Shown: piece by piece, positions 1,138-36,913 of the stretch
Layout of the letters: each line of letters begins with the position of its first letter
Numbering within the stretch: position 1 is the first letter of the stretch
Assembly (NCBI GenBank): GCA_937863565.1
Contig: CALMGJ010000013.1
Coordinates: forward strand, 1-64,000
Origin: an uncultured bacterium
GTDB lineage: Bacteria > AUK180
Length of the DNA stretch: 64,000 bases
Reading direction: 5' to 3'
The notes under the pieces: model-generated
Told to the model about the DNA's origin: nothing
Database searches by the model: none
Seen by the model: the letters and a program-made list of their open reading frames with translations, nothing else
Translations under genes and position numbers: made by a program

Positions 1138-2043
1138 TTATTCTGATAATTCAAGCATTTTCTGAAGAGGGATGCGCGCGGATATCATCACATCTTCGGG
1201 AAGCTCGATGCCGTATTTATTCTCAAGAAGCGAAAGATACACATCCTTAAGCCCGATCTTCTTCATATTGCGGCATATGATGCGTGGTTGAAGCGGGTAG
1301 AATTCCTTTCCCGGGTTTTCATTCCTGAGGCGGTAGATAAGCCCCTCTTCGGTCCCTATGATAAATTCCTTCACGTCAGAATTTTTAACGAATTTCAGCA
1401 TTTCCCCGGTTCCCATAAGATGATCGGAAAGAGCGCTCACTTCTTCATTGGCTTCCGGATGCGTCAATATAAGGGCTGACGGATGGGCTTTTCTTATTTT
1501 AAGAAGCTCATCCTTTTCAAGGTCCTCATGAACATAACAATAACCTTCACTCAGAATGATCCTCTTCTTCGGGCATTTCTTCTGTATAAAACGTCCGAGG
1601 TTCTTATCGGGCAGGAAAATGATATCCTTTGAGGGCAGTTTAGAAGCGATCTTCACAGCATTGGCGGATGTGCATATAACATCGGTCAGCGCTTTTGTTC
1701 TTGCGTTCGTGTTGACATAGGCCATCACGGAAGCTTCCGGATACTTTTTTCTGAGCCTCGCGATCTCCTCTTCCCGGGCCATATCCGCCATGGGGCATCT
1801 TGCCTCCCTGACGGGATGTAGGACCGTTTTCATGGGGGCCAGGATCTTGGCGGTCTCTGCCATGAATGAGACTCCGCAAAATACTATCACTGAAGCGGAT
1901 ATTGAGGCTGCTTTCAGGGAAAGGTCATAGGAATCACCCAGATGGTCCGCAATATCCTGGACTTCAGGGCTTTGATAATTATGTACGAGGATGACCGCAT
2001 CACGTTCTTTCTTGAGCTTTTTTATCTCTTCCTTATACTGCAT
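1138..2043 (-). CDS. nadA: Quinolinate synthase
   Basis: Motifs HNYQ..EVQDIAD..GDS, FCGVSFMAETAKIL, CPMADM, YVNT, CTSANA, CYVHE, HPE, C..MK. Confidence 0.97.
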   Translation of the reverse strand: MQYKEEIKKLKKERDAVILVHNYQSPEVQDIADHLGDSYDLSLKAASISASVIVFCGVSFMAETAKILAPMKTVLHPVREARCPMADMAREEEIARLRKKYPEASVMAYVNTNARTKALTDVICTSANAVKIASKLPSKDIIFLPDKNLGRFIQKKCPKKRIILSEGYCYVHEDLEKDELLKIRKAHPSALILTHPEANEEVSALSDHLMGTGEMLKFVKNSDVKEFIIGTEEGLIYRLRNENPGKEFYPLQPRIICRNMKKIGLKDVYLSLLENKYGIELPEDVMISARIPLQKMLELSE

Positions 2044-5578: not shown

Positions 5579-6742
5579 TTATTTTTTTTTTATAATGAGT
5601 CCTACAAGGATCTTGGCGGCCTTTTCCTTCGTGATCCCCTCAAGGTGAACGGTCCTCTTCCCGTAGGAGATGAATCCTTTCACGGGAAGATCACCGAAAC
5701 CCGATCTTTCCGAGATCAGATTGGCAAAAAGGATATCCACGGGTTTATTCGAGAATTTTCTTTTCAGAGCATTGATGTTCAATTCGGTCTCTGCGGCGAA
5801 ACCGACAATGAACGGGCGCTTCTTTCTTCCCGAGACCCATTCGAGGATGTCCGGGCCCTTTTTAAGTTCAAGGGAACCGCCGAAGGAATCTTTTTTTATC
5901 TTTTTCGGATTGTAAGCAGGGATAAAATCCGCTATTGCAGCGGCCGATACGAAAATATCGCAACCGTGAATATGCTCTTTTACTGCAGATAAGAATTCCG
6001 CTGAACTCGAAGCTTTAATGATCTCAATCCCGCAAGGCAGATTCAATGCTGCAGAAGTGATCATTTTCACCAGGGCTCCTTTTCTGTAGAAAGAAAGTGC
6101 GATCTGTCCTGCTGTTTCTCCGCTTGAAGAATTCGAGATGTAGCGTACGGGATCTATGCGTTCCTTTGTCCCGCCGGCCGTTATCAGAACCGTCTTTCCG
6201 GCAAGTTCATTGCCGTATTCATGAGCATTTAACGTTTCGGTCTCGATCACTTCAATATTCTCCATTGCGCCGCGGCCTTTACGGTATGAGGCTAAAGCCG
6301 CAGTGCGGGGAGGTATCTGGATCACATTCATCCTTTTAAGCTTTTCCAGATTCTCCTGCAGGGCAGGATGTTCGTACATATTAGTGTTCATTGCCGGAGC
6401 AACAAGGACTGGGCCCTTAAAGGCGAAATAGATATCTGTAAGAAGATCTCCCGAAATACCATTGGCCATCTGACCTATGATATCCAGGGTAGCCGGAGCG
6501 ATAATGAGCACATCTCCCCATGAAGCGATCGCGATATGCACAGGCTGCGGAATGCCGGCAGGGAAACGTTCGCAGTACAGACCTCCTTTGGCGAAAGTAG
6601 CCGCCGACAGAGGCGTAATGAATTGGGCAGCATTGGAAGAAAGGACTGCCTTTACGGTATGTCCGCCCTGTTCGAATCTTCTTATGAGGTCAAGTGACCT
6701 GTACGCTGCGATCGACCCCGTTATTCCAAGTATTATCTTCAT
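5579..6742 (-). CDS. coaBC: Bifunctional phosphopantothenoylcysteine decarboxylase/synthase
   Basis: GITGSIAAY, APAMNTNMY, ITAGGTKERIDPVRYISN.SSG, AAAIADF, KIKK, GFAAET. Confidence 0.95.
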   Translation of the reverse strand: MKIILGITGSIAAYRSLDLIRRFEQGGHTVKAVLSSNAAQFITPLSAATFAKGGLYCERFPAGIPQPVHIAIASWGDVLIIAPATLDIIGQMANGISGDLLTDIYFAFKGPVLVAPAMNTNMYEHPALQENLEKLKRMNVIQIPPRTAALASYRKGRGAMENIEVIETETLNAHEYGNELAGKTVLITAGGTKERIDPVRYISNSSSGETAGQIALSFYRKGALVKMITSAALNLPCGIEIIKASSSAEFLSAVKEHIHGCDIFVSAAAIADFIPAYNPKKIKKDSFGGSLELKKGPDILEWVSGRKKRPFIVGFAAETELNINALKRKFSNKPVDILFANLISERSGFGDLPVKGFISYGKRTVHLEGITKEKAAKILVGLIIKKK

Positions 6743-7347
6743 TTAAGATATCCTTTTATGAATCTCTCATGCCGCTTTATCTTCATCTGCTCTGATCGTA
6801 TCAGTGTTTCCACGCAGGAAACGGCGTTCTTGATCTCGTCGTTTATAACGAGATAGTCATAATATTTAATGAGCTTTATTTCCTTTTCGGCGTTCTTAAG
6901 TCTCAATGCGATGGTCTTCTCGTCATCTGTCGCCCTTTCACGAAGCCTCTTCCTGAGCACTTTAAAGCTGGGAGGCAGAATGAATACGAAGACTGCGGAG
7001 GGGAACATTTTCTTAATATTGATACCGCCTTTGATATCTATGTCCAAAAGTATGATCTTACCTTTTAACATCATATCGTTCAGGTACTTTTTCGGGGTTC
7101 CGTAAAAGTTCGAATGCACCTTTTGCCACTCGATCAGCTCTCCCCTGTCGATCATGTTACCGAATTTCCTTTCGGAGACGAAGAAATAATCCCTTCCGTT
7201 CCGTTCGTTCCCCCGGGGTTTTCTGGTGGTGGCAGAAATGGAATAGCAGAAATCGGGGTGTTTTTTCAGGATCGCGTCCCTGATAGTCGTCTTCCCTGCC
7301 CCCGAAGGCGCAGTAAGTACGACAAGGAAACCCTTGCCTTTCATCAC
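6739..7347 (-). CDS. gmk: Guanylate kinase
   Basis: APSGAGKTT, SISATTRKPR..E..GRDYFF, YGTP, FILPPS. Confidence 0.97.
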   Translation of the reverse strand: MMKGKGFLVVLTAPSGAGKTTIRDAILKKHPDFCYSISATTRKPRGNERNGRDYFFVSERKFGNMIDRGELIEWQKVHSNFYGTPKKYLNDMMLKGKIILLDIDIKGGINIKKMFPSAVFVFILPPSFKVLRKRLRERATDDEKTIALRLKNAEKEIKLIKYYDYLVINDEIKNAVSCVETLIRSEQMKIKRHERFIKGYLK

Positions 7348-8195
7348 AGGATCCTGTCCACTTCCCTATGTCTGTTAGGGATGAGCACACGGCTGCGGCA
7401 TTCCATCAATTCCCCTGCTGCCGAACAAGCTGCATTAAGGGCGCTTTCGGTCTCGCTCAGAGTTCCCGTGAATCCTGCCGATATCAGCGTTGAGCCTGTT
7501 TTATAGATACCGGTCAATTCAGTTGCTCCTTTTTTCAGTCCAGCATCGACACCACGCATCAAAGCGGCGAAAGAACGCGTTTCAAAAAAACCGATGGCGG
7601 GGCCTGCTGAAGATCTCTGGCCGTGCCCCGTTCTGATCTCAAGGCGTTTTTCGTCAATATCCTGATGCGGATTGTCTATCACGAGATGCCGGTATTTATA
7701 TGGTTCGGGAACTCCGGCTTCTGAATGTTCCACAGCGGAGCGCACCGATGCCACATCCCCTCTAACGGTAAAACTCGTTATACCGCCGCCTATCGTTATC
7801 CATGTGCGTGCCGTGACGAAGCCGCTTTTTAACGCATCATCGGCAGCAACGGCCATAGGAACGAAACCTTTCGTTTCCACTATTCCCAGGGCAGCACTCG
7901 ATTCCGGATACTCGATCTTTTCCTTTTTAATGAACCCGTACAGGTCCGGATGAGGACCTTTAATGATCGATGCGGCGTGCAGTTCCGGCAATTTCTTAAG
8001 TTCGTCCAGATTGCGTTCATAAGCATAGATAAGTTCTGCAACAGGGCCCTGGAAAACGGTGATGGCATGGCCGCCGCCGAGCAGGATGAAATGGAAGAAC
8101 TCGACATCCGATGTCTTTGGTATCCTGTCCTGTGCATCGACAAGGCCGCACATCCCTTTCGTTTCAATAAGAAGCAGTGCGTTATTTCCTGTCAT
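7344..8195 (-). CDS. Bacterial microcompartment shell protein with three tandem BMC domains
   Basis: Three ~90-aa repeats: LLLIETKG...GGG...QGPV; ALGIVETKG...AAD.ALK...GGG...RGDVASVRSAV; AIGFFETRS...VD..LK...G.....ESALNAA. Each ends in an I..PH-like motif. Confidence 0.88.
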   Translation of the reverse strand: MTGNNALLLIETKGMCGLVDAQDRIPKTSDVEFFHFILLGGGHAITVFQGPVAELIYAYERNLDELKKLPELHAASIIKGPHPDLYGFIKKEKIEYPESSAALGIVETKGFVPMAVAADDALKSGFVTARTWITIGGGITSFTVRGDVASVRSAVEHSEAGVPEPYKYRHLVIDNPHQDIDEKRLEIRTGHGQRSSAGPAIGFFETRSFAALMRGVDAGLKKGATELTGIYKTGSTLISAGFTGTLSETESALNAACSAAGELMECRSRVLIPNRHREVDRIL

Positions 8196-9975
8196 ATCCG
8201 CTCAACTCTTTAAGCTGTTCGAGATTATCCTTGATCATTTCGAAACTTTTCTGCCAGAAGGCCGTATGTCCTATATCTATGCCGCACGATTTGAGTATTT
8301 CGCGGGGTTTCTTCACGCTTCCCATCGAGAGGATCTTCTCCAGAACTGGTATGAAGCTCTTGCCCTGTTCTTTATACATACCGTATAAAGACATGGACAG
8401 AAGCTGTCCGAAACTGTAGGCGTAGCAGTAAAAAGGAGTGGAGAAGATATGACTAATGTATGCCCATTCATATTTGAACATCTCGTCCAGCAGTATCGAA
8501 TCGCCGAACTGGGAGCGGAGGTTCTTCATGTATACTTCGTTGAGTTCCTTCGATGTCGCGCCGTTCTTGACATGGCAGAAAGCCTCTTTCTCGAACTTCA
8601 CGAAGAAGGCCTGCCGCATGATCGTCGCGTATGTATCGTTCAGTGAATTGGATAGAAGCGCGATCTTCTGTTTATTCGATTTAGAGACCTTGAGGATCTC
8701 ATCGAACATGAGCATCTCGGCAAAAGTAGAGGCTGTTTCCGCGAGCGTAAGGGAGGAGTGGGAGACGACAGAAGGAAGTCGCGACGAATAGAGCGAATGC
8801 ACTCCGTGACCGAGCTCATGAGCCATAGTGAATACCGAATCCATGTCTCCCGTGAAATTTAAAAGAACATAGGGCGTTATCTTCGGGCTCAAGGTCGAGC
8901 AGAAAGCCCCCGATCTTTTACCTACTCGGGGATGTGAATCGACATGGTCCTCTTCGAATATCTTTTTTGCGAAAACATAGAATTTTTCATTGAAACTTTT
9001 GAAGATGCTGAGAACATAGGCCTTCGCATCCGTGAAATCCCATTTTTCGCCCGATTGGCCGGCGGGGGCGTTAATATCCGTACGGGATAGCTTTGGAAGT
9101 CCCAGAAGACGGGCCTTTACCCCGAAGTATTCGCGGAAAATATCCTTATTCTTGTCGCAAACATCAAGAAGCGTCTCTATCGTACCGTCATCCACATCAT
9201 TTGAAAAATTCCTTATCGAGATCGGCGAATCGAAATGTCTGAACTCGCATTTCGAATGCCAATCCATTACGACCGCGCGGTAGATAGTGAATATCTTCTC
9301 TACATTCTTCTCGCATTGCGTCAGAAGGGCCGTGTATGCAGCTTTCCTTTCCTCGGTCTTTGAACTGCGGAAATATGAGGAGAGCTCGCCGAGCGTTTTT
9401 ACCGTTTTGACCGGTTTCCCCTTTATTCTCATTTCGAAGGTCAGGCCATCGAAGATCATTCCGTACAGTTTTAGAACAGGGCCTTTCAGATTGATATCCT
9501 TTACTGTCCAGATCTTCTCTTCCTCCATTGAAAGACCGTGTTTGGACGATTCCCTTATATGTTCGAAATAGAAATGCAGTTCGGGGATATAAGCAAAAAG
9601 CCTTTTTGCATTCTTTCCGTCGAGATGTTTGAGTCCTTTTACGGCTTTGCCCTCGATCCATAATTTTATCGTAAGCTCGATATCGGCATATTGCTTGGCG
9701 ATATCGGACGATCTGGAAGCATAGTAGGCGGATTCGCTCGCAGAGACATTCACGGCCTGAAATAAAGAGGCAAAACCTATCACGCGGCTCACCTGATGCT
9801 CGAGCTCAAGGTATTTTCTGACGAACTCCTTGAACTCCTTTTCACGGATAGAAGGTTTAAGCGACATAAGAGTGCTTTTGAACGCTTCTATCCTCGAGCA
9901 TGTTCTTTTGTATTCTTTCTCGAAATCGTTCTTCCTTATAAGAGAATCAAGGTCCCAGAGATTTTCCTGCTTCAT
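8182..9975 (-). CDS. pepF: M3B-family oligoendopeptidase F
   Basis: WDL start, GKRSGAFC, TMAHELGHGVH zinc motif, LAETASTFAE, HIF.TPFYCYAYSFG. ATG 9975 follows a GAGGTG RBS. Confidence 0.92.
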   Translation of the reverse strand: MKQENLWDLDSLIRKNDFEKEYKRTCSRIEAFKSTLMSLKPSIREKEFKEFVRKYLELEHQVSRVIGFASLFQAVNVSASESAYYASRSSDIAKQYADIELTIKLWIEGKAVKGLKHLDGKNAKRLFAYIPELHFYFEHIRESSKHGLSMEEEKIWTVKDINLKGPVLKLYGMIFDGLTFEMRIKGKPVKTVKTLGELSSYFRSSKTEERKAAYTALLTQCEKNVEKIFTIYRAVVMDWHSKCEFRHFDSPISIRNFSNDVDDGTIETLLDVCDKNKDIFREYFGVKARLLGLPKLSRTDINAPAGQSGEKWDFTDAKAYVLSIFKSFNEKFYVFAKKIFEEDHVDSHPRVGKRSGAFCSTLSPKITPYVLLNFTGDMDSVFTMAHELGHGVHSLYSSRLPSVVSHSSLTLAETASTFAEMLMFDEILKVSKSNKQKIALLSNSLNDTYATIMRQAFFVKFEKEAFCHVKNGATSKELNEVYMKNLRSQFGDSILLDEMFKYEWAYISHIFSTPFYCYAYSFGQLLSMSLYGMYKEQGKSFIPVLEKILSMGSVKKPREILKSCGIDIGHTAFWQKSFEMIKDNLEQLKELSGYDRK

Positions 9976-10146
9976 TTTCACCTCGTGTTTTTGTATATTA
10001 CATTTTTTTTCTTTTTTTTCAATGATATTGGATAATATTTTTAGATAAGCGGGGCTGAAACATTGTTTTTATACCCAACAACACTGACATTAAGCATTTA
10101 TCATCCTTTGATTGGTAAAAAGCGGGGTTATTCCGGCCCGGATGGC

Positions 10147-10900: not shown

Positions 10901-12322
10901 TTATACTTCTTCTGTACCGGCAATATCCTTTTTGTTGATCCCGTATTTTTTCATCCTTAGTTCCAGTATCCTGCGGTTCGTTGCGAGAAAATCTGCGATC
11001 TCCTGATTGGAGAACCGTGGATACTTCGCTATCGTTTTCAGTATGAGCTCCTTTTCTCCTTTTTCGTATATCCTCAAGATATGTTCGAATCCTCTTTCTA
11101 TCGGGAGAAGGCACTGGATCTTGATTATATCCTCTTCCCCCTCCTCTTCCCCAGGACTAATGCCGATGGATTCTATCTCGATGTGTTTTGCGGTTATATA
11201 TTCGCTTTTTTCGAGTATAACGGCCTTTTCGATGATATTCTCCAGTTCGCGCACATTGCCGTTGAAATCGTAGTTCATCAGTTTAAAGAGGGCTTCATTG
11301 GACAAGCCCTTTATGTTCTTAGAGTTCTTCCGGGAGAATTTCCTTATGAAATAACTGGATAGAAGTGAAATATCCTCCTTTCTTTCCCGAAGGGCAGGAA
11401 GATGTATCCGTATCACGTTCAGCCGGTAGTAAAGGTCTTCACGAAACCTTTTCTCCTGAACTTCCTTTTCAATGTTCTTATTGGAACTGGCAATGAAGCG
11501 CACATCGATCTTTATGCTCTTGATGCCGCCCACGCGTCTTATTTCCCTGTTCTGGATCGCATTGAGGAGTTTGGCTTGGAGTTTCGATGACATTTCGGAT
11601 ATTTCGTCAAGGAATATCGTCCCTCCGTTCGCAACCTCGAAAAGACCCGGCTTATCCGAAAGCGCACTGGTGAAGGCGCCCTTCTCGTAACCGAATAATT
11701 CCGCTTCAAGAAGGTCTTCGGGCAATGCCGCGCAGTTTATTACTATAAAGGCTCCGCTCTTGCGGCTGCTCAGAAAGTGTATCGTTCTTGCAATGAGGTC
11801 CTTTCCCGTCCCCGATTCTCCCGTTATAAAAACATTGGCATTTGAATACGAGATGTCGGCGATAATGTCAAAGATCTCCTTCATCTTCTTATTCTTACCG
11901 ACAACGCCCGGGAAAGCCCTTTCTATTTCGCTTGTCAAGTATGATTTTTCATTCCTTATGACCTGATACATCTCGATCGCTTCTTTGACCAGTTTATGCA
12001 GCACTTCGAAATCAAAAGGTTTTGCTATAAAATCGTAAGCTCCCATTTTCACGGCATTTATGGCGCTTTCTACCGATCCGTAAGCGGTAATGAGTATTAC
12101 TGGTACATCATAATCGGCGGTCTTGATCTCCTTGAGCACCTCAAGGCCGTTGATATCGGGCATTTTAAGATCAGTCAGCACACAGGTCGGTGCGAATTTC
12201 GCGAATTCCTCTATTCCGCTCCTACCGGTATACGCCGTTCTCACTTCGTAGCCTTTCTTTTCGAAATTGATCTTCATTACATTGACGAGATTCTCTTCAT
12301 CATCGATTATAAGTATCTTCAT
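10901..12322 (-). CDS. Sigma54-dependent response regulator (NtrC/AtoC family: REC-AAA+-HTH)
   Basis: ILIIDDE, DLKMP, GESGTGK, ELFGYEKGAFTSA, FLDEI, FREDLYYRLNV, GNVRELEN. Confidence 0.95.
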   Translation of the reverse strand: MKILIIDDEENLVNVMKINFEKKGYEVRTAYTGRSGIEEFAKFAPTCVLTDLKMPDINGLEVLKEIKTADYDVPVILITAYGSVESAINAVKMGAYDFIAKPFDFEVLHKLVKEAIEMYQVIRNEKSYLTSEIERAFPGVVGKNKKMKEIFDIIADISYSNANVFITGESGTGKDLIARTIHFLSSRKSGAFIVINCAALPEDLLEAELFGYEKGAFTSALSDKPGLFEVANGGTIFLDEISEMSSKLQAKLLNAIQNREIRRVGGIKSIKIDVRFIASSNKNIEKEVQEKRFREDLYYRLNVIRIHLPALRERKEDISLLSSYFIRKFSRKNSKNIKGLSNEALFKLMNYDFNGNVRELENIIEKAVILEKSEYITAKHIEIESIGISPGEEEGEEDIIKIQCLLPIERGFEHILRIYEKGEKELILKTIAKYPRFSNQEIADFLATNRRILELRMKKYGINKKDIAGTEEV

Positions 12323-12323
12323 A

Positions 12324-13691
12324 TCACTGCTCCAGGATTATCTTGAAATCCGTGCGGTCCTCTTCACTACGGGCTTCTATTCTCCCTCCGTGGAGTTCCG
12401 CGATCTTCTTGCTTATGGCAAGTCCCAGGCCGAATCCTTTTGTATCCGTCGTATAGAAGGGATCGAAGATCCTCCCGATATTGCCGCTTATTTTGATGCC
12501 GTTATTGGATATCTCTATAATGATGCGTCCGCCTTTCCGGTAGGCGGAGATGTTAACAATGCCTTTTTTTCCTTTCAAAGCAATCGCTTTCGATGCATTT
12601 TCGCAGATGTTCATAACGATCACTTTGAAAAGCGCCTCATCTATATCAGCGTAGATCACGGGGTCTTTGAAGCTGAAGTTCAGCTCATTATCCTGCCCGA
12701 TGGCGTTCTCGATCACATCTCTCATATTGAGGAGCATCTGTTTGATATCAGTTCTCTGCCTGTTCAGAGATATATCCCTTGAGAAGTTCAGCATTTTATC
12801 CACAAGATTCGAAAGCCGTTCCGTCTCCTGGATGATATAATCGAGCAGTTTCAGATTCTCCTCAAGGTCCTCATATTCCCTGATCGTAGAAGCCGAAGCC
12901 TTTATCGTACCCAATGGATTCCGCAGCTCGTGCGCGATCATGGAGGAGAACTCTCCCATCGTCGAGAGAATGCTGTTTTTCAGGATCTCGTTCTTCAGGA
13001 AACGCTCCTTTGTAAGGTCCTTCATGAAAATATAGTAGAAACCCCTCTCGTATTTGAGTTCTATATTGTAGTTCCTTCCGTTGAAGATCACATTATCATA
13101 GAACCTTTTCTGGTCCTCTTTTATCTTACCGAGATCGTTAATGATCTCCTCGGAAACTTCCGGTATCTTATGCATGAGGGTTTCAAGTCCGCCTTTCAGG
13201 TCGGGATCGTTCGAATATACGATCTGTCTTCTGCTGTCGCTGATGACGAGTATCCCGCTCAAATATTCCTCGTATTTATCAGGCAGCGCCTTTGGGGCCG
13301 TCAGCTCCGCGAAAATGAACAGGAAACCTCCGGTAACGACCATGTGCAAAAGAAACATGAGCGGGAACAGAGGATATCCCGGATCATAATAGATAATGGC
13401 CTGTTTAATATTGACAATATCTCCCTTGTTGAGGGAGAAGATCTTTTTCTTCGAAGAAGGCCGGCCTGCGGTCTTAAGAGGCCCCTGTTCGAAGATATCG
13501 TGTATCTCGAAACCCGTGACCGGAGGATACTTCTCTATTTGTATCGAATCGTAGTCGCCATTTCTGATCTCTTTGAGCATTTTATTGATATTCCCGTTGC
13601 GAATGACCGTTCTTACGGATAGGACGGATATCGAGAAGATCAAACCGGCGCAGGCAGAAAGGACGATCAATGCAGCAATACGTTTTTTCAT
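12324..13691 (-). CDS. Membrane sensor histidine kinase
   Basis: Two TM helices; H-box IAHELRNPL, N-box NICENA, F-box IFDPFYTT, G-box GFGLGL. Start placed at ATG 13691 (ATGA overlap with the asnB stop). Confidence 0.92.
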   Translation of the reverse strand: MKKRIAALIVLSACAGLIFSISVLSVRTVIRNGNINKMLKEIRNGDYDSIQIEKYPPVTGFEIHDIFEQGPLKTAGRPSSKKKIFSLNKGDIVNIKQAIIYYDPGYPLFPLMFLLHMVVTGGFLFIFAELTAPKALPDKYEEYLSGILVISDSRRQIVYSNDPDLKGGLETLMHKIPEVSEEIINDLGKIKEDQKRFYDNVIFNGRNYNIELKYERGFYYIFMKDLTKERFLKNEILKNSILSTMGEFSSMIAHELRNPLGTIKASASTIREYEDLEENLKLLDYIIQETERLSNLVDKMLNFSRDISLNRQRTDIKQMLLNMRDVIENAIGQDNELNFSFKDPVIYADIDEALFKVIVMNICENASKAIALKGKKGIVNISAYRKGGRIIIEISNNGIKISGNIGRIFDPFYTTDTKGFGLGLAISKKIAELHGGRIEARSEEDRTDFKIILEQ

Positions 13692-15539: not shown

Positions 15540-15570
15540 AATAAGGTACCTGGTCTTTACATTTTACGGA
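15540..15570 (-). repeat. 31-bp repeat copy A (inverted relative to B and C)
   Basis: Reverse complement is TCCGTAAAATGTAAAGACCAGGTACCTTATT, one mismatch to copy B; contains the transposase stop codon. Confidence 0.95.
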
Positions 15571-16501
15571 ATTCAGCACGATCGATCCTCTCTAATCTTT
15601 TGAAGAAAGCATTGTCCTTCTTCATTGAGAAACGTAGTCTGAAGAGTCTTTGGCCCACTGCGTTCGCTGAGCTCAGACCAAGCTTTTCAGCCATCTGCTG
15701 TTGCGTCAGATCACAATACTTGCTCATAAAATAGACCGCAATATCCTTGAAACGGTCTTCTTTTTTAAATTTCTGCATGATCCGCCATATCTTTTCATTT
15801 CTGGTATCTATGATTTTCATCTTTTTACCTAGGGCAGTTTCAGGAAGCGCACCGGATTTCGATGTATGTTTTTCCCTCATGCATTCCGTCCATTTAGATG
15901 ACCCTAACAGATACTTGTACGTTTGAAGCTCGAAGTATGGCAGTCGGTGTTCCGTGTCAAGCCATTCTACGATCTTCGCAGGTGTGGAGATACCCACCCT
16001 TTCCTTTACGCCTTTCCAGTATATCAGGTCTTTTATCTTATTTTTCAATGCCCCGTCGCATTTACCTGAAAGGTATCTCCAGATACCTCCGGGATATGAT
16101 GCAACGCTTTCCGATATTCCTCCTCGAACCGCATTTTTGTTAACATAGCTGAACACATTAAGGAAATATTTTTCCTGTTCGATCAGTATGGCCTTGTATC
16201 TTGCTCGGAACACGGCACCTTCTCTTCTAATGGCTTTGTTGAAAGTCCTGGCCAGCTCACGGTTCAAATAGAGCATGCCGCGGCTTAAATTGGGAAGAGG
16301 CGTTTCGATGAGGATGTGATAGTGGTTTCTCATCAATATAAAAGCATAGATGCGGAACCCGTATTTTATCCTTACAGCATCAAGAAGACCTACGAAAGCG
16401 CTGAAGTTCCTCGGTGTTTTATACAGCCATAAAAGTCCCGTCCCGCGGCTTATTACATGATAGAAAGCGCCGGGATATTCTATTCTAAGAGGTCTTGTCA
16501 T
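15557..16501 (-). CDS. REP-associated tyrosine transposase-like protein (Y1_Tnp/HUH) with C-terminal HTH
   Basis: MTRPLRIEYPGAFYHVISRG start, LMRNHYHILIET (HUH), VFRARYK..LIE, Y...NAVR.G catalytic Tyr region, C-terminal LTQQQMAEKLG HTH. Confidence 0.9.
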   Translation of the reverse strand: MTRPLRIEYPGAFYHVISRGTGLLWLYKTPRNFSAFVGLLDAVRIKYGFRIYAFILMRNHYHILIETPLPNLSRGMLYLNRELARTFNKAIRREGAVFRARYKAILIEQEKYFLNVFSYVNKNAVRGGISESVASYPGGIWRYLSGKCDGALKNKIKDLIYWKGVKERVGISTPAKIVEWLDTEHRLPYFELQTYKYLLGSSKWTECMREKHTSKSGALPETALGKKMKIIDTRNEKIWRIMQKFKKEDRFKDIAVYFMSKYCDLTQQQMAEKLGLSSANAVGQRLFRLRFSMKKDNAFFKRLERIDRAEFRKM

Positions 16502-25482: not shown

Positions 25483-28400
25483 TTATTTCAAAGGTATTGC
25501 GATGATCACAGGAAAGTTCTTCACTGTTATCCCTTCATCGTCGGCCGTGTAAACATTCACGATATATGTTCCTATTCTCAGGGGTTTTCCCTCATCGTCC
25601 TTGCCGTCGAACGCTATGCTGCCTGAACCCATATTCGCATCTATCAGAGTTCTTACGACCTTTCCTCTCAGATCGTATATCCTGATCGTTGTTGTGCTTC
25701 CCGGCACGGCATTGAAATTGATATTTGTCGTTTCATCTTCATAAGGGTTGATAATATTGTCCGCAGGACCTTCTCTATCGAACTCGTATCCCGAGAGTAT
25801 CACCATATCTGAAGCATAGCGCGGTTTTAACTCGTACCCTGACGTATACGGAGTCGTTTTGTCATACTGAAGAAGGATCCCCGTCACTTCAACGAGCATT
25901 CCCATTTTAAAGATATTAAGATCGATATCGGTGCTGTCGTAATCGGAACAGTAGACCTCCACTTTCCCGAAGCCGTCTGTGATATAGAAATAACCCGAAT
26001 TGGGGGCGTAGATCTTTATCTTGTCGCATATATATCCACGCATCGTGATAAGAGTTCCCTCTATTTCTTCGAGATCTGTGCCGAATATCTGGGTCTCGGC
26101 AGGTTCCATCACGGCTGTCCCTATTTTCGTCACGTCCCCGTCGCCGCTGACTACTATTTCCGTTGTACCGTTATATGCAGTGATCTGTCCGCTTACGCTG
26201 ATGATATCCCCTACATCATACGAAGTTGCAAGTTCGCTGTAACCGAATATATTCACTCCGTAACCGTCCTGTTCGAAGAAGAATGAACATTTTCCCGTCT
26301 GGAAAATGCCTGTCGGCACATTGACTACGCCGATGATGTCATCCACATTTTGATTATTTAAAAGCGGCATGCCATTGTCGTCATGTGCCCTGATATCTTT
26401 AAGAGTATATGTGAGGGGTGAAGCTGAAGCGCTGTCATCGGCTTTCTTTGAAAGTCCGAAGCAGTTTTCCGCTTCAATATAATAGTAATAAACATTGTCC
26501 TTGGAAACCGCATTATCGGAATATGTATCCCCCATGACCCCGGTCGCAATCGGGCTGTAGCTTGCCGTGTCGTTCACCGAGCGGTAAAGCGTATATTCGA
26601 GCGTATTCTCGGCATCCGAAGCTGCACCCCATGAGATAAGAATGCGGTAATAATCGCCCACGGCAGCGATATCTGACATTCCGCTCGTCGGCCAGTCCGG
26701 AGCAGTCGTGTCGTAATTGCAGTCAGGGATGTTCTTGAAGCCCTTGGAATCGTCCTGACAAATGATATTGGAAGTGAAAACGTTATAACCGTTATGTAGC
26801 CAACCCGCTACATCGTCGTCATCCCTCTGATATGAATTATTCGTAAAGGAACATGCCGCTTCCCAGCCGATCTGGTCGATCCTGACGCCGGTATCGTCAT
26901 ACATGTATATATTGCTGTGCGTCTGTCCGTCGACACTTGTCAGGTTAAAACCAGCCGGGAATGAGGACTGTTCTATCACATAAAATGAATAAGAATTCAC
27001 CGTAGTGGAAGCCGGGATGGCGAGTATGCTGTCGCAGATGATCTTAAAACCGCTGATATCCGCTGCCGAGGCCGAATTGTTGTAGATCTCGATGAAAGCC
27101 GCGCCGGGGTGCGGATTCACTTCATTCACCGTAACCGTATTACCAAGAACGGGAACAGGAGCATCATTCGCCGCACCGGGAGTGGGCGTAAAGTCTACTG
27201 TCCAATCCGAAGAAGCGGTGCCCGTCGCCTGCACTTTAGCCAGTGAATAATCTTTGAGAAGATCGGGTGCACCGCCGGTGTATCCGTAACTGAATGAATA
27301 GATGCCCGCATCGAAAGCATTCTTAAGAGCGATCGTTCCGCTCCCGGCCGTGATATACGTATTGTCCAGTGTATCGGTGAAATCCGTGGAATAGAACACT
27401 TTGTAAGCCCCTGCCTCGATGATCGTTCCTGTTTTGAAAAGGTCATTGTTCACTTTGAACGAACTGATATTGATATCGTATGCCTGATTGTTCCTTATCT
27501 CCAATTCGATAAGTCCCCCGGTCTTCAGGAAGACTTCGGAAAGGGTCAGCGCCGTAAGCGGCACATTGAAAGAACCTTTTGTATTGCCTGAAGAAGCGGC
27601 GATCTTGAAGCCGCATGTAGACCGATTAAAACCATCGTAATAACCGCCGTATCCGTCAGACACTCTGGAGAAGTTCTCCCCGGAAGCGGAAAGCGCTTCC
27701 CATCCTATCTGGTCGTGCCGTCGGCCGTTATTGTCTATCAAGTATATCGTTGAGGTATCGAAACTCGTTTCACCGCTGCCTTCCTGATAAAGGGCGAAAT
27801 CCTTGGTGACCGTGGTCAGGGAATATGCGGCGAGATATGTGCCGGTAGGGAATGTATTGGCGACAGTATCCACGAGTATCCTCCATCCGGATATATTGAT
27901 CGTAGAGGATGTGATATTGAGAAGTTCTATATATGAAGTTGAGTCACCTGATTTCAGGTACGCTTCGTTAATAATGACCCCCTGGCCCAGAAGCGGAACG
28001 CTTCTGTTATTCGCGGAACCGAATGTCGGGGTTTTCTGCCACTCCCAGTCCTTCGCATGATCTCCGGTCGTTCCTACCCTCTCGCAGGAGAAAGGATTAA
28101 GGGTCGCCGAGGTGCGGACACCCGGGTCGGGCGCTCCGCCCGCCGTTCCGTAATATACTTCATCTATGAGATTTGATAACCCGTCATAGAGTTTAATATA
28201 CCCGCCGCCTTCTGCAAGAGAGCCGCCGTATGTGCCGTCCAGCATATCGAAGGAGACCAGAGCACCGGAAGCGAGAGTGCCTAAAGACGTAAGGTCCTGT
28301 ACATATTCCCCGCCGCCATATCCGGCAATCGAGATCGGGAAAGCGATATACCATCCTGCGAAATCGACCGTAGCGCCGGTATTGTTCTTGAGTTCCAATT

Positions 28401-28533
28401 TCCCGTCCACGCCCCCCATAGAAGAACCCCAGAGCACTTCCGTATTGAACTCGTTGATCAGAACATCATGAAAAGTTGCCGAACATATAAGAATCGTTGA
28501 TAGAAAGAAGACCGTAAGAAAATACCGTTTCAC
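25483..28533 (-). CDS. Secreted multi-lamin-tail-domain protein with FN3, OB-fold-like repeats and a FlgD-Ig/T9SS-like C-terminal domain
   Basis: Repeated INE...ELxN...xSGW/F motifs; LKDIR...G.V...G.......Q.G..G and GD.I.V.G.I..YNG.TEI OB-like motifs; YELKPR..SD; C-terminal IRIYDLRGKVVRTL...FDGKD..G..L..GTY. GTG 28533 follows GGAGG. Confidence 0.8.
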   Translation of the reverse strand: MKRYFLTVFFLSTILICSATFHDVLINEFNTEVLWGSSMGGVDGKLELKNNTGATVDFAGWYIAFPISIAGYGGGEYVQDLTSLGTLASGALVSFDMLDGTYGGSLAEGGGYIKLYDGLSNLIDEVYYGTAGGAPDPGVRTSATLNPFSCERVGTTGDHAKDWEWQKTPTFGSANNRSVPLLGQGVIINEAYLKSGDSTSYIELLNITSSTINISGWRILVDTVANTFPTGTYLAAYSLTTVTKDFALYQEGSGETSFDTSTIYLIDNNGRRHDQIGWEALSASGENFSRVSDGYGGYYDGFNRSTCGFKIAASSGNTKGSFNVPLTALTLSEVFLKTGGLIELEIRNNQAYDINISSFKVNNDLFKTGTIIEAGAYKVFYSTDFTDTLDNTYITAGSGTIALKNAFDAGIYSFSYGYTGGAPDLLKDYSLAKVQATGTASSDWTVDFTPTPGAANDAPVPVLGNTVTVNEVNPHPGAAFIEIYNNSASAADISGFKIICDSILAIPASTTVNSYSFYVIEQSSFPAGFNLTSVDGQTHSNIYMYDDTGVRIDQIGWEAACSFTNNSYQRDDDDVAGWLHNGYNVFTSNIICQDDSKGFKNIPDCNYDTTAPDWPTSGMSDIAAVGDYYRILISWGAASDAENTLEYTLYRSVNDTASYSPIATGVMGDTYSDNAVSKDNVYYYYIEAENCFGLSKKADDSASASPLTYTLKDIRAHDDNGMPLLNNQNVDDIIGVVNVPTGIFQTGKCSFFFEQDGYGVNIFGYSELATSYDVGDIISVSGQITAYNGTTEIVVSGDGDVTKIGTAVMEPAETQIFGTDLEEIEGTLITMRGYICDKIKIYAPNSGYFYITDGFGKVEVYCSDYDSTDIDLNIFKMGMLVEVTGILLQYDKTTPYTSGYELKPRYASDMVILSGYEFDREGPADNIINPYEDETTNINFNAVPGSTTTIRIYDLRGKVVRTLIDANMGSGSIAFDGKDDEGKPLRIGTYIVNVYTADDEGITVKNFPVIIAIPLK

Positions 28534-28666
28534 ATCAACCTCCATTAAATAATATTGTATGATATTTTTCCTTTTGATTCAACATTTTTATTCGGCTGAA
28601 TGTGTATAATAAAAGCGTCGCGCATTTTTGCACGATGCCCGGAATATTGCGAAAACCTAGAAACGT

Positions 28667-31600
28667 CTACTTGATCACAGCGAGCTTCTTGAACGTTTCC
28701 TCCCCTGCCGCATCCTTGACAACGATAATGTAAATACCGGAAGCCACACTTTCGAGATCGTCATTCTTCACATCCCATCTTGCCAATCCGCCTTCATATG
28801 CGAGCCCGGAATAATCTGAATGGAGAAGGACTGATTGATCTTCAGTCGACGGAAGGTATTCTAAGGCAAGTCCCGTGCCTTCATTCCAATCGGCTACAAG
28901 TTCGCCGGCGATATTGTATATCGAGATCCTCTCTACAGAATCGGAAAGCCTGTCGATCATTATACCGCCCGAAGCGGATCCCGTACCCGAGTTACCGTCA
29001 GAAGGCCGGTACGGATTGGGAACTATCCTGAACTCGCCGCTTTTAGCCGGAGCTTTCTTCAGCATGAAGATCCCGTAGGTCGAGAAATGATCAGTTTGTA
29101 TCGTTATCGATCCGCCGTTATTAATTGCGCCGCCCGTGATCACTTTCCCGCCGATCTGTTCCCAGGCTCCGTTATTGTAATACCAGATCTTCAGGTTCTC
29201 CTCATCCGCGGTCGAATTTACGCCATTGCCCGAATTATCCACAGCAGCGGTATAATTGATCGTCATCGTAACGGGTTTTTCAAACGTGATGCCGCCGCCG
29301 TCGGCATAGAATTCCCTTACTTCTCCCATCGAGATAAGATTGCTGCCGTTGGAATCCGAAGGCGGATCGGTGATAGGTGCATTTATCGTGATCTCCACAT
29401 CAGACGCCAGCGCGCCCTCCGGTACATCAACATATGTGCCGGAATTATCATGGAGGATGCCGCCAATGCCTGAAACCGATCCTCCAACCTGAACAGAAAG
29501 GAGTGACAGCGCATATGTGTCCGAAGAAATGCCGTGCGTCATAGAAACATACGACATTTTATCCCCGCCCGAGGGGGCGAGTACGGCAAAAGCCTCATTG
29601 AACGGATTATTTGCGATGAGCGCAGCAGGAGTATTAGTGAATGTACCCGTTACATTCCTCATAAAGATATCAAAATTGGTATCTGCAAGTACAATGTCCG
29701 GCGCGGATACCCATAGAAGCGCATTATCGAAGCGGGATGCGGCATCCTCTATATAAGAGATCACATCTCCGTTTATCGTCCATGAAGGGCACCAGGACGG
29801 AAGGTTCGTACCGGTCACTGCGACAAGGTCGGATGATGACCACGAAACGACCGGGGTTCCCGAGGCGAGAACGGCCTGCACATCGGCAAGGATATAGATA
29901 TCGCTTCTGTTCGATGCCGGATAATCACGGACAAAGGTTATTTTTGTTCCGTCCGGAGACCATTTGGGCTGGAGGAGTTTATCCCGGAGCGACGTACTTT
30001 CGTTCGTATCCGTATAAAGGGAGAAATCTGTCAAAGCCTTCGTCCCTTTGTCCGGCGCGGTGCTGTACGGATCGAAGACCCACAGATCGCCGTCTATGGA
30101 TACCGCAATGGAGTCACCTCTATCTGGCGTTCCCGGATTGAAATCGTACCAGTCCGGATCGAGCCAGTTGCCCCAATCGGTCGTCGAGACGGGGGAGATC
30201 CTCGTCCGTCCCGGTCTGGAACCGTCGGAAGGCTCCGTAAAGATGTGTGACCTTCCGAAGCCGTCAATGGCAGCAAAAGCAATGAGCGTACTGTCGGGAG
30301 ACCACGTGAACTGTGAAAGATAAGTAACAAGGTCGGCGTTCAGCGTCACTGAAACGGGCACGGCCGAAGTGTCCGTTCCCGAGATCACGTAGATATTGGA
30401 TTCCGTTGAAGACGTACCCTTCATAAAAGCGATCCTGGGAGTTACCTCTTTGGACCATACCGAATACAGCAACCAATCTCCCGCTCCGTTGAATGTCGCA
30501 TTGGAATAATCGCCTTTGGCGTAGACAGCGAGGTCCACTTTGGATTTCACGGGAAGAGTGAAATAGTAGTCCTGAGGGTTAGGCGATATGAGGTTGCCGC
30601 CGCCTAAAGCTTCATAATTATCCCTTTGCGAATATATCCTTATGAAAAAAGGCGCTCCGGGCGTCAGCCGTGACGCGGTAAAATCAAGTTTATCCGTTCT
30701 TTCATCGGAAAGAAGAGTTGCCCTGTTCGGATAATTGTTCAGTGCACCGTTCAAGCGGAAAAGTGTCAGCGTCTCGGCTGCCGTTTCATACATATCCTCG
30801 TTCCATTTGATGTATATCTCGGCCGTATTTCCGGTGGAATCCCACTGTATCCAGTAATCCTCGACCCGGGGCCTTACATAATCGCCGGGTTTTGCCGTGG
30901 CCGTATCGGATTTCACGCTCGAGACGGACCTGGAGTCGACGGCCTCTACGGCATAATAATAAGGGACATTGTATTCCAGCGCGCTGTCCGTATCGTAGTA
31001 TGTCGTATAAGGATGGAGCGATTTCAATAAAGTCCAGTCACCGGACCCTCCTCCGCCGCCGTCAGGCGGGCACGTTATGGAGAAATCGTCTATGTGCATC
31101 CTTTCGGCATATGTCGTCGTTACTCTTACTTTGATATTATCGCTCGTATTATTCAAAGCGTATGACCATTGCTGGTATGTCGTGTTCGCGCATGCGACCG
31201 TTGCGATATCTACGTATGCCCCGCCATCCACGCTGTAGGATACTGTAAAATTGAATGATGGATTACCGTCCCAGCTTCTGTACCAGAACGATATCGTCCC
31301 TACCCCTCCGTCCTTGCCGTTGCCGTCGGCGCCTATATATTCCAGGCTCGGCTGAGGCGTTGCGTTCCTCAGTCTGACATCGCTCGGTGAAGAATACGGA
31401 TAGGTAGTATCCCTCAATCCATTCGTTATCTGGAAGCCGTTATACGTGTAATCGCCGTATGCTGTCGCACCCGTCCAGCCATCGAAGTTCTCGAACACTT
31501 CCGTGCAGTCCCCTCCTCCCCCTCCTCCGTCAGAAGGATTGGAGGAAGTAGATCTGTAGATATTGTATCCCTTTACGGTAAGGCCGTGCTCTTCCCCGTC

Positions 31601-34600
31601 CCCATAATGCGAAGGCGCCGTCCAGTTAAGGTATATGCTCTTATCAAGTCCGGTGTTCGAAGCGAGCAAAGCCGTCGGGGAATCGGGCAGAGTGTCCGTG
31701 TCGAAAGTGCTTGCCGCCGGGCTTCCCGTCTGATTGTAAAGAGCGTTTCCCCAGATGTACTTGTAGTTCTGGAAGAAGATATTGGCAAGGTTCGCGTCGT
31801 GGATGACGACCATGTTCTCGTCATTCTGATTATGTGTGCCGTCTGTCCATTCAGTGGAGGATGAATCCGCTGCGGCGGACCAGTTCGGGGAACCCGTGAT
31901 CACGGTGGGATCGGAAGCGGGATATTCGGGATCGATGACCATGTATTTATTGTGGCAATAGTAGGTCCCTCCGCCGTTATCCACGGCCACGTTCATACCG
32001 TAGTTCTGGCAATCGTAATACCTCCCTGTCGTCCAGCTGCTCGAGGAGAACACTCCCTCGATATACACTCCCCTGTCATATGCATCCTGCAAGTGATACA
32101 TTGTTGTGTAATCGGTAAACGACGAGATCGCCAGATATATGGTATGATCGGCATTTGCGATCTGATCGCCGATGATATCCGACATGTCGTTAAAGCCCAG
32201 CATATAGGCCTCGATATTGTTCTCCCCTCCGCCGATCGAATGATAGTTCACTCCTCCCGGTGCGGGGTCGTAATACGGGCTTTGTAGAGCGCCCATATAG
32301 AGGTTCGGCGATTTACACCAGCCGTCCCCCGAATACCCGAGGTCCCACATAAGATGATGCTGATTATAATACTGCTTTGCGATGTCGGGATGCCTGAAGT
32401 ATATCTGATTCTGCATCTGCTGCGCGGTGCCGGTCGAGGACCAGTTCCAGGAACCCGTGCAGACAAGGTCGCCGACCGTTGAGGAACCGTAGTATCCCAC
32501 GTCAAGAACATAGAACTTGTTGTGGGATGCGCAGAAATCTCCCCCCATGTTCGAGGAGCCGTCGCAACCGTTGCTGTAATCGTTCCTGCAGTTGTTCACG
32601 CCGAAATTCGACCTTATACCCCAGCTCGTATTGCCGGAGGTCCCTCCCTCATGCCATAGGCGCTTCACGCTCCCGGCAAAGCCGGAAACGGCATTATCGA
32701 TGGTCGTTCCCGCCGTTTGGTCCACATAGGCCGTGGCATAGAGATTATACCGGCCCTGCGTTATCAGATATGCAAGTACATCATCAAGGTTGGAATCGCA
32801 GAAATGCTTTCCTGCCGAATAGATGCCGGACATATCCCCGGTCCCCGTCCAGGCCCCGCCATAGGCCTTGAGCCAGGCCGTCCGCCCGTAACTCGCATCA
32901 AGAGGTTCCGTGAAATACGCATGGAACCACGGTATTGCCGTCATGCCGACAGTCACCGGCGATCCCGTACATGCCGTATAATCAGGATTCAATTCAGTTT
33001 TCGTTTGGACAATAAAACCGTTCTCGGCAACATTGTCTGATGATATGAGATCGTAGAAGATGAATGCCACCGTTTCTCCGGGAGCGAGCGTATTGGACAG
33101 ATCGACATATGTCTGGTTAAAATCGCAGTAAATATCCCAATCCTCGTACTCGGGGAGTTTTTTTACGGATACCGTGGAGTTCGAGATGCCGGACCATCCG
33201 GAAGGCAGATAGACCCTTATCCCGGTAAGAGCATCCTTGAGCGAGGCCACATCGATCGAAATATAATTACCGATAGAATCGGCCAAGATGGGGTTCGCCG
33301 GCCCGTCGCCCGAACCTCTTGCGGTATAAAGGGATGCTTCACCGCCTGCCGAATATATCGTAAGCAAGGCCCGAGGGAATTTTATGATCGAGTATGAGTC
33401 GAAATTCGGCGGATTGACGCCGTCCGTCGGCGAATTGCCGTCGGTATATATCTTGAATTCGTATTCGCCGGAAGCGGGAGCCGTTGCAAGCTCAAAGGTG
33501 ATATTAATGTCGGCATTGGAGGAAGTAAGGACGGGAGTTCCGTCGATCTTGTAGAATATCACCCTGTTGTCACGCGTGGCCTGAGCGCAGCCGGCGTCAT
33601 TCTCGAACATCGTGGCCAAAAGTTTTCCCCCATTGGCCGCGATCCACGCAGGAGGCACCTCGATCTGGATCTCGCTGATATCCGAGGCTTCTTTCGTAAT
33701 GAGGAAAGTGAACTCGTTCCCTTCGGTGTTCTCGATGATATAATTCGAACTTTTAGTGAAAGTGGTCAGAACGCCTGTGCCGTACGGGCCGCACTTGATA
33801 GGAACGGTATTGGAGAAAAGCGAAGAAAGATCCCCGTCGTCAACTGTCTTCAGAGCATAATAATACAGCGTGCCGATGCCGATCCCGGACAATGAAGCCG
33901 TATCGCCCGATGTCGTACCGATAAGGACCGCTCCGGACATATCAGAGTTCACGCTCTGATAGATATCGTAATGGTCCGGAATATTGCAGCCGGTCGGCGC
34001 TGCCGTGAACGCGAGGTAGATGCTGCCCGAGCTTCCCACATCGTACCCCGAAAGAGCGGACGCTGCGGAAGGGATCGTTCCGTTCGTTCCCGAAGCACAT
34101 CCCGGAGATGCCGGGTCGGAGATCGCAAAATCGGAAGAAGGATCGTCGGTATCCACCCATACGGGAGATCTCACAAGGGTCTGCCCCGATGCGGTGACGC
34201 CCGGGTGAGGGATGTGGCCGTGCATCGCGTTCTGGCCGTAATTCATGAAGTCCACTATCCTGTCGCTCCCGTCAAGGATCAGCACTTCGTCTCCGAAATC
34301 GGCCGAATTGCCCAAAGAGACGAAATTGTAACCTTGAACGGTCCATGTATTGTATTGGATCATATTGGGAACGGCGGGATCATCCTCGCCGTGCACTTGG
34401 GAAGCATCGGACCAGCAGAACTCGTAATTCGGTTTGAAGCCGTAAAGGTCCTCGAAATGGTAGGAATAATTGGCGATCACCTGAGTCTGTCCCGCTGCGA
34501 TCGTTGCGCCGACGGGGAACTGGTACATTCCTTCCTTGTAGGAAGTGTCCATCTTCCTTTCTTCATCCCCTATCTTGTAATTCGTAAGCGTTATGGAAGA

Positions 34601-36802: not shown

Positions 36803-36913
36803 CTGGCACCTCATTACATTATTTTTTAAAAAGTGTGCAATTTTCATACCTGGTTATAAATATTGATATATTGGAATATAAGCGAGATGAATTTTCCAAA
36901 TTATTGGAATTTT

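Follow-up and report, generated by a model that had tools for sequence, protein, structure and literature searches.

A three-domain bacterial microcompartment shell protein predicted to form a two-fold pseudohexamer

We describe a gene that encodes three consecutive bacterial microcompartment (BMC) domains in one polypeptide. It was found in a stretch of 64,000 nucleotides (nt) of contig CALMGJ010000013.1, from the assembly GCA_937863565.1 of an uncultured bacterium (GTDB lineage Bacteria; AUK180), and this whole stretch is called the window below. The gene lies on the minus strand at 7344..8195, and its product, protein P0001 in our numbering, has 283 amino acids (aa). Each of the three domains matches the shell-protein family PF00936 on its own, the chain is under strong purifying selection in close relatives, and two copies of the chain are predicted to close into a hexagonal ring of six domains. 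We lean, with modest confidence, towards the view that the protein forms a homodimeric two-fold pseudohexamer and is a minor (satellite-type) tile, encoded apart from the main genes of its microcompartment, which would be located elsewhere in the genome.

Three BMC domains in a single chain

The open reading frame (ORF) starts with ATG at 8195 and ends with TGA at 7346-7344. The original prediction, which was made from the sequence letters, had given this interval correctly as that of one polypeptide with three tandem BMC domains and had left the strand unstated. The whole protein scores 127.4 bits against PF00936 in Pfam (E 2e-37) in three stretches, and the three matches that had been expected were obtained also when the three thirds were scanned as separate proteins. 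With a gathering score of 24.5 bits for this family, domain 1 (residues 1-95; 7911..8195, minus strand) scored 33.3 bits (E 4.9e-08), domain 2 (residues 96-185; 7641..7910, minus strand) scored 58.9 bits (E 4.8e-16) over profile positions 1-75 of 75, and the linker with domain 3 (residues 186-283; 7347..7640, minus strand) scored 43.9 bits (E 2.4e-11). Because each third passes the cut-off alone and spans the profile from position 1 or 2 to position 73-75 of 75, the three-fold repeat is real and lies far outside what chance could produce, and all three domains have the ordinary order without circular permutation.

The view that domain 2 is canonical and that domains 1 and 3 are diverged agrees with these scores and with the R-G-D-V-A stretch, which is kept only in domain 2; domain 1 is the most diverged of the three. 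Identity between the three domains within the chain is 18-26%, indicating that the triplication is old. An Asp-x-x-x-Lys motif, which in PduA-type hexamers makes the lateral contacts between tiles at the edge, is present in all three domains of the window protein, and across three-domain proteins it is found in 20 of 20 first domains, 19 of 20 second domains and 19 of 20 third domains. The equivalog models of NCBIfam gave scores far below their respective cut-offs (CcmO 113.2 against 270, EutM 88.5 against 133, CsoS1 60.7 against 166, the PduT-type model TIGR02526 55 against 250.3, and EutK 35.9 against 218), so that it is not orthologous to any of these named shell proteins.

The AlphaFold2 model built on an alignment of five sequences (A1) has a mean pLDDT (predicted local distance difference test) of 83.7 and a pTM (predicted template modelling score) of 0.83. 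It consists of three beta-alpha-beta-beta-alpha-beta(-alpha) units, in which the non-permuted order is repeated three times; in domain 1 the order beta-alpha-beta-beta-alpha-beta-alpha occupies residues 5-89. The units are connected by two linkers of 12-14 residues each, at about residues 90-101 and 186-199, and the second of these is of low confidence (pLDDT below 50 at residues 188-195). The non-permuted alpha/beta BMC fold is thus modelled with confidence in all three domains. When the model was compared with the Protein Data Bank (PDB) by Foldseek, the matches were exclusively BMC shell proteins of both the BMC-T and the BMC-H type, with a probability of 1.00. The top matches were two-domain BMC-T proteins, namely 3nwg, PduT (3n79 and 3pac) and the Haliangium BMC-T1 (6n06 and 5dii), with E of 6e-15 to 1e-12, about 185 of the 283 residues aligned and a query TM-score of at most 0.58. 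A sequence profile search of the PDB gave 63 distinct matching sequences, the best of which was 6ner (E 1.6e-46). Among the 60 of these 63 that were listed, and among the Foldseek matches, there was no chain with three BMC domains; the longest all-BMC chain listed was 6ner itself, a synthetic tandem fusion of 213 residues. A longer listed chain, 3gv2, is a fusion of capsid and CcmK4.

A word-based search found four full-length relatives, three of them with 44-46% identity (288-289 aa) and one with 30% identity (293 aa); a fifth match, P0006 (183 aa, E 4.3e-4), was weak, extended over 60% of the query and was set aside. Across the five aligned sequences 49 columns are invariant, and no Cys is among them, which leaves no conserved Cys for a PduT-type Fe-S cluster or another cofactor site. 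A profile search of 1.84 billion representative proteins yielded 6826 matches at E<=1e-3, with 30 at E<=1e-30, and at the top of the best 150 of the 6826 the whole three-domain profile is covered in one stretch. About 20 three-domain proteins occur among these best 150. When PF00936 stretches were counted in 40 long matches, three were found in 19 proteins, four in 1, and two or one in the rest, the query itself being extra to this count. Our own single-domain hidden Markov model (HMM), applied to 154 proteins, assigned one, two, three and four domains to 56, 73, 24 and 1 of them, respectively; of the 24 with three domains, 20 have a length of 270 aa or more. In the tree of domains mentioned below, three proteins (P0021, P0028 and P0030) group with the four-domain family and may be members of it in which one domain was missed. 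The public names of the three-domain proteins are generic ("BMC domain-containing protein", and "CcmO" in two cases), and their organism labels include Candidatus Calescamantes, Candidatus Atribacteria, Elusimicrobiota and plain "bacterium".

At the DNA level, a single ORF with three domains was present in 7 of 81 sources (80 fetched loci, which carry the prefix L, and the window), namely in the window, in L001 and L002, which with the window constitute the window clade, and in four Sumerlaeota loci. Three-domain BMC chains are rare but recurrent. Their rarity in this survey is consistent with the uncommon class of tile that the original prediction had proposed; no such chain appears among the listed PDB matches either, or in the portions of the classification literature available to us. 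In the ESM Atlas no three-domain cluster with at least 50 members surfaced, in a search that gave only leads below 0.9 and is not evidence of absence; the nearest large cluster to the query there was of the four-domain type (382 aa, 457 members, feature score 0.89), which is to be taken as a lead only.

L001 and L002 share 95% DNA identity and differ at 2 residues in the three-domain protein. The ratio of nonsynonymous to synonymous substitution rates (dN/dS) between them is 0.022 overall, with 0 for domain 1, 0.028 for domain 2 and 0.039 for domain 3, and these low values in every domain indicate strong purifying selection on all three domains. The corresponding values for the Sumerlaeota pair L005 and L020, including 1.17 for domain 3, were discarded, because the comparison was ungapped in the presence of indels and synonymous sites were saturated. 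In a tree of individual domains, read without support values, the window clade's first domains fall together with those of other three-domain proteins, and second and third domains are mixed; we do not claim from this tree one common origin for all three-domain proteins.

Predicted two-copy assembly

The proposal that a dimer of the chain makes a two-fold pseudohexamer was borne out at the level of structure prediction. Two copies of the chain gave an ipSAE (interaction prediction score from aligned errors) of 0.67, 0.71 and 0.68 in three runs (median 0.68), which passes the mark, and the best of three controls gave 0.00. The mark had been reached by 20 of 30 solved homo-pairs and by 1 of 23 single chains in the calibration of the tool, and these counts hold only roughly here, because we supplied our own alignment. 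At least 94% of the contacts were common to the runs, and the pLDDT of the partner was at least 86.

The interface in the dimer model is symmetric and of the kind that closure of a ring calls for: residues 13-46 and 70-71 of domain 1 lie against the partner's domain 3 (residues 201-282), and the pore loops (residues 40-42, 136-137 and 232-237) meet centrally, with contacts including 41-41' and 235-235'. At the centre of the ring, residues 40-42 of the domain 1 loop, G40-G41-G42-H43 (8067..8078, minus strand), are in contact with residue 41 and with residues 232-237 of the partner chain; the domain 2 loop, I135-G136-G137-G138 (7782..7793, minus strand), reaches the partner's residues 41 and 235 through residues 136-137; and in the domain 3 loop, K232-T233-G234-S235-T236 (7488..7502, minus strand), residue 235 touches its counterpart in the other chain. 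From the contact between domain 1 and domain 3' and the central position of the pore loops, it follows that the model is a closed two-fold ring in the order D1-D2-D3-D1'-D2'-D3', and six BMC domains are thus predicted to close into a hexagon around central pore loops.

The mechanism that we propose starts from a natural shell protein in which three non-permuted PF00936 domains are joined by two short linkers. As each BMC domain is a wedge of 60 degrees, one three-domain chain makes up half a hexagon, and two chains joined head-to-tail would complete a flat two-fold pseudohexamer. The mass of this dimer, estimated from the number of residues, would be about 62 kDa, and its expected width is about 65 Å, the diameter that PMC8217296 gives for BMC hexamers. 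Such a tile would have three different edge types, each occurring twice, and a small central pore lined by the Gly-rich loops of domain 1 (GGGH) and domain 2 (IGGG) together with the Gly-Ser loop of domain 3 (KTGST), the residues expected at the pore being G41/G42, G137 and G234/S235. The original prediction had foreseen an asymmetric pore; the pore of this dimer would have two-fold symmetry and would not be strictly asymmetric. As the edge motif is kept in all three domains, the dimer would be expected to fit into a layer next to ordinary hexamers and trimers. The gene would be co-transcribed and translationally coupled with the housekeeping genes gmk and coaBC, and the remaining shell genes of the microcompartment would be found elsewhere in the genome. 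Of all this, the three domains, the confidently modelled fold, the conserved architecture and the purifying selection are shown and the ring is predicted by the structure model, and we infer that the tile enters a shell and that a main locus exists.

Genomic context and alternative explanations

Immediately downstream of the three-domain gene is the guanylate kinase gene gmk (6739..7347, minus strand; PF00625, 160 bits), followed by coaBC for phosphopantothenoylcysteine synthetase/decarboxylase (5579..6742, minus strand; PF04127 and PF02441). The start of gmk overlaps the stop of the three-domain gene, as TGATG if gmk begins with the ATG at 7344 and by 4 nt if it begins with the GTG at 7347. 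Upstream, the end of a gene for an oligoendopeptidase F-like peptidase M3 (8182..9981, minus strand; PF01432, 150.8 bits) overlaps the start of the three-domain gene by 14 nt. This upstream neighbour is not conserved, FecCD and ABC ATPase genes being found at this place in L001, which is labelled "bacterium", and in L002, which carries the organism label Candidatus Atribacteria. The order of the three-domain gene, gmk and coaBC with overlapping stop and start was found in all three window-clade loci, the overlap with gmk being 1 nt in L001 and L002, and the three-domain gene is probably translationally coupled to gmk-coaBC. The three-domain genes of Sumerlaeota have varied contexts without gmk.

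Several other genes of these regions may be recorded here. The quinolinate synthase gene nadA is located within about 5-7 kb of the block of three-domain gene, gmk and coaBC both in the window (1138-2043, minus strand) and in L001 (L001:17902-18831, minus strand), and this shared neighbour hints at a wider common gene order between the two genomes. In the window there are also an ORF of 614 aa (40460-42304, plus strand), in which an amino-acid permease is fused to an EIIA_2 domain of the phosphotransferase system (PTS), and two giant ORFs on the minus strand (25483-28545, 1020 aa, and 28667-36847, 2726 aa) with repetitive, secreted-looking sequence. An ORF of 314 aa (15557-16501, minus strand), located between genes for asparagine synthase and a YchF-like GTPase, has a weak match to IS200-like Y1 transposases (26.2 bits), with no stretch passing alone. 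The best matches to the tRNA-guanine transglycosylase of the window share 64-69% identity with it and bear no label more specific than "[bacterium]".

Of the 80 fetched loci, 12 from Latescibacterota and Gemmatimonadota contain one ORF of 382-394 aa that encodes a chain with four PF00936 domains (L003 at 11866-13020, L007, L008, L013, L015, L024, L028, L029, L030, L031, L051 and L056). L003 is a metabolosome-type locus with an aldehyde dehydrogenase, a PduL-type phosphotransacylase, two BMC-T, one BMC-H, and enzymes of the DHDPS family and DAO type. A two-domain gene directly upstream of its four-domain gene overlaps the latter by 14 nt, and a 2+4 heterodimeric pseudohexamer is conceivable from the gene arrangement of the four-domain loci. 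Adjoining the microcompartment locus, at L003:17426-19356, are three TIR or ThsB-like genes and a gene for an 8xMP membrane protein, which look like a defence island. A literature search found no paper on the four-domain BMC family. The matches to the whole query from enterobacteria and planctomycetes were rejected as fused chains, because each of them is spread over three distinct, neighbouring BMC-H genes with one domain apiece. Such triplets are present in seven loci of Enterobacterales (L004, L010, L011, L019, L023, L026 and L040) and in seven of Planctomycetota (L014, L022, L035, L037, L038, L039 and L046), and they look like an unfused counterpart of the fused architecture.

The satellite-type reading has to be weighed against several observations that speak against it. 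The total Pfam scores of the window clade are 127-147 bits, as opposed to 195-237 bits for other three-domain proteins, showing that this clade is diverged, and the usual G-D and R-P-H positions are altered in domains 1 and 3, which could mean that tiling contacts are altered or lost. Among 46 large ORFs scanned in the window, which covers 64 kb of a 124-kb contig, a scan that left out the two giant ORFs mentioned above, there was no other PF00936 protein, no PF03319 protein (pentamer, BMC-P), and no aldehyde dehydrogenase or phosphotransacylase; likewise, the stored flanks of the seven three-domain loci contained no second ORF with a BMC domain. In the window and in these flanks the shell gene therefore stands well apart from cargo enzymes and other shell genes. 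Furthermore, the passing of the dimer may reflect the likeness of the model to, or its memory of, solved BMC hexamers and trimers, because many of these have already been solved, and the predicted ring expresses the structure model's own confidence in the two-copy state, the one state that was folded.

An explanation that we consider unlikely is that the same dimeric pseudohexamer has a role independent of classical microcompartments. The genome would then encode no further BMC-domain protein, the dimers might assemble into sheets, tubes or a scaffold, and expression would be tied to gmk-coaBC. The solitary state of the three-domain gene in the stored flanks of all seven loci, its fixed place directly before gmk-coaBC throughout the window clade, where its stop overlaps the next start, the lack of shell and metabolosome enzyme genes among the scanned ORFs of the 64 kb, and the strong divergence of the clade from ordinary shell proteins in spite of strong purifying selection would all suit this role. 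Against it, PF00936 proteins are held to be exclusive to microcompartments in the available text of PMC9052549, scattered shell genes are documented (the FRAG types in the available text of PMC8217296), the Asp...Lys edge motif for tiling is kept in all three domains, and the solitary state was judged from partial genomes. An extended form of the same idea, to which we give little credence, makes the protein the founding member of a sixth hexagonal tile class, a two-fold dimer, which as the only BMC protein of its genome would be expressed with gmk-coaBC, would build sheets, tubes or a compartment that lacks vertices, and would serve a function outside the chemistry known from microcompartments.

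The chain might instead be a half-tile that completes its hexagon with a different partner encoded elsewhere, which could be a second multi-domain chain or a set of three subunits with one domain each. The two-domain gene that precedes and overlaps the four-domain gene in Latescibacterota and Gemmatimonadota suggests that 2+4 hetero-assemblies can exist, and in the enterobacterial and planctomycete loci the three neighbouring BMC-H genes together match the query over its full length. Against this, the homodimer prediction is strong and self-consistent, and the surroundings of the seven three-domain genes contain no gene for a candidate partner; we regard a half-tile as improbable. Adjacent BMC-H triplets in other genomes and the divergence of domains 1 and 3 might also lead one to suspect an artefact, either three single-domain genes merged by an error of sequencing, assembly or gene calling, or a decaying pseudogene. 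This suspicion is hardly tenable, because an uninterrupted colinear ORF of 283-289 aa recurs in independent assemblies, linkers of 12-14 residues are unlike intergenic spacers, the dN/dS between L001 and L002 is very low, the invariant columns are numerous, and the fold is confident in all three domains. We retain, with the caution expressed above, the satellite-type tile as our preferred explanation.

A two-fold tile of natural origin would bring a new class of symmetry to the five hexagonal building blocks counted in the available text of PMC8217296 and PMC9052549. Its three different edges, and a pore made of three different loops, could set its orientation or position within a facet and could gate different metabolites, and each chain could offer shell engineers three domains that can be addressed independently. 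The solitary gene in all seven loci and the linkage to a housekeeping operon in the window clade also raise the question whether BMC-domain proteins always work in microcompartments.

Comparison with known shell proteins

According to the available portions of PMC8217296 and PMC4207490, BMC-H proteins have one domain and form hexamers, and BMC-T proteins have two domains and form trimers; the five distinct hexagonal building blocks counted in PMC8217296 and PMC9052549 comprise six-fold hexamers and several kinds of three-fold trimers, as far as the same portions go. We found no description of a natural three-domain BMC protein or of a dimeric pseudohexamer in the full-text literature; the supplement of PMC8217296 could list such proteins. 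In their available text, the 2021 catalogue (PMC8217296), the 2014 taxonomy (PMC4207490), PMC9052549 and the preprint 10.1101/2021.01.18.427120 do not mention a three-domain chain, and full-text literature on four-domain or multi-domain BMC forms and on microcompartments of Calescamantes and Sumerlaeota describes no such multi-domain protein. Two phrases that might be mistaken for precedents have other meanings in the text available: the "three tandem BMC" of bioRxiv 10.1101/2021.01.18.427120 are three tandem-domain dimers, i.e., ordinary BMC-T, and the "three BMC" of PMC4207490 are three BMC-T or BMC-P genes.

Each domain of the present protein resembles BMC-H proteins such as PduA, EutM, CcmK and CsoS1 in having the full PF00936 profile, the Asp...Lys edge and a pore loop (Gly-rich). 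Unlike in BMC-H, which has one PF00936 domain per chain, three diverged copies are present in one polypeptide of 283 aa, which therefore lies outside that class, and its tile cannot be six-fold symmetric. Covalently linked BMC domains are shared with 6ner, the synthetic BMC-H tandem fusion in an engineered Haliangium shell, which shows that such fusions can build shells; 6ner differs in being man-made and in having two domains (213 aa) with identical halves. Among natural chains with more than two PF00936 domains, the comparable ones are the four-domain proteins of Latescibacterota and Gemmatimonadota (P0014; L003:11866-13020), which, unlike the three-domain protein, are encoded inside a metabolosome-type locus and whose domains stand apart from the window clade in the domain tree.

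The closest likeness is to the BMC-T(s) proteins, including PduT, the BMC-T1 of Haliangium ochraceum and the Desulfitobacterium protein 3nwg, with which the protein shares non-permuted PF00936 domains arranged head-to-tail with short linkers and a domain-to-domain packing predicted to build a six-domain hexagon. It differs from PduT in having no conserved Cys for an Fe-S cluster. The definition of BMC-T(s) in the available text of PMC8217296 and PMC4207490 calls for two PF00936 domains per chain and three chains per tile; the chain described here has three domains, and two chains would close its ring, with two-fold instead of three-fold symmetry. The protein would thus resemble BMC-T in making a pseudohexamer from fused domains, as the dimer model suggests, and yet it falls outside the two-domain and three-chain definition. 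With regard to gene location, the available text of Sutter et al. (2021, PMC8217296) describes satellite loci and FRAG types, in which shell genes are scattered over up to six places of a genome in candidate phyla, and the text of BMC Caller (PMC9052549) available here assigns PF00936 proteins to microcompartments and to no other function. The satellite and FRAG types in the portions of PMC8217296 at hand include none with three domains. Like these genes, the three-domain gene is encoded far from enzymes and other shell genes, and they are the nearest precedent, as described there, for a solitary shell gene.

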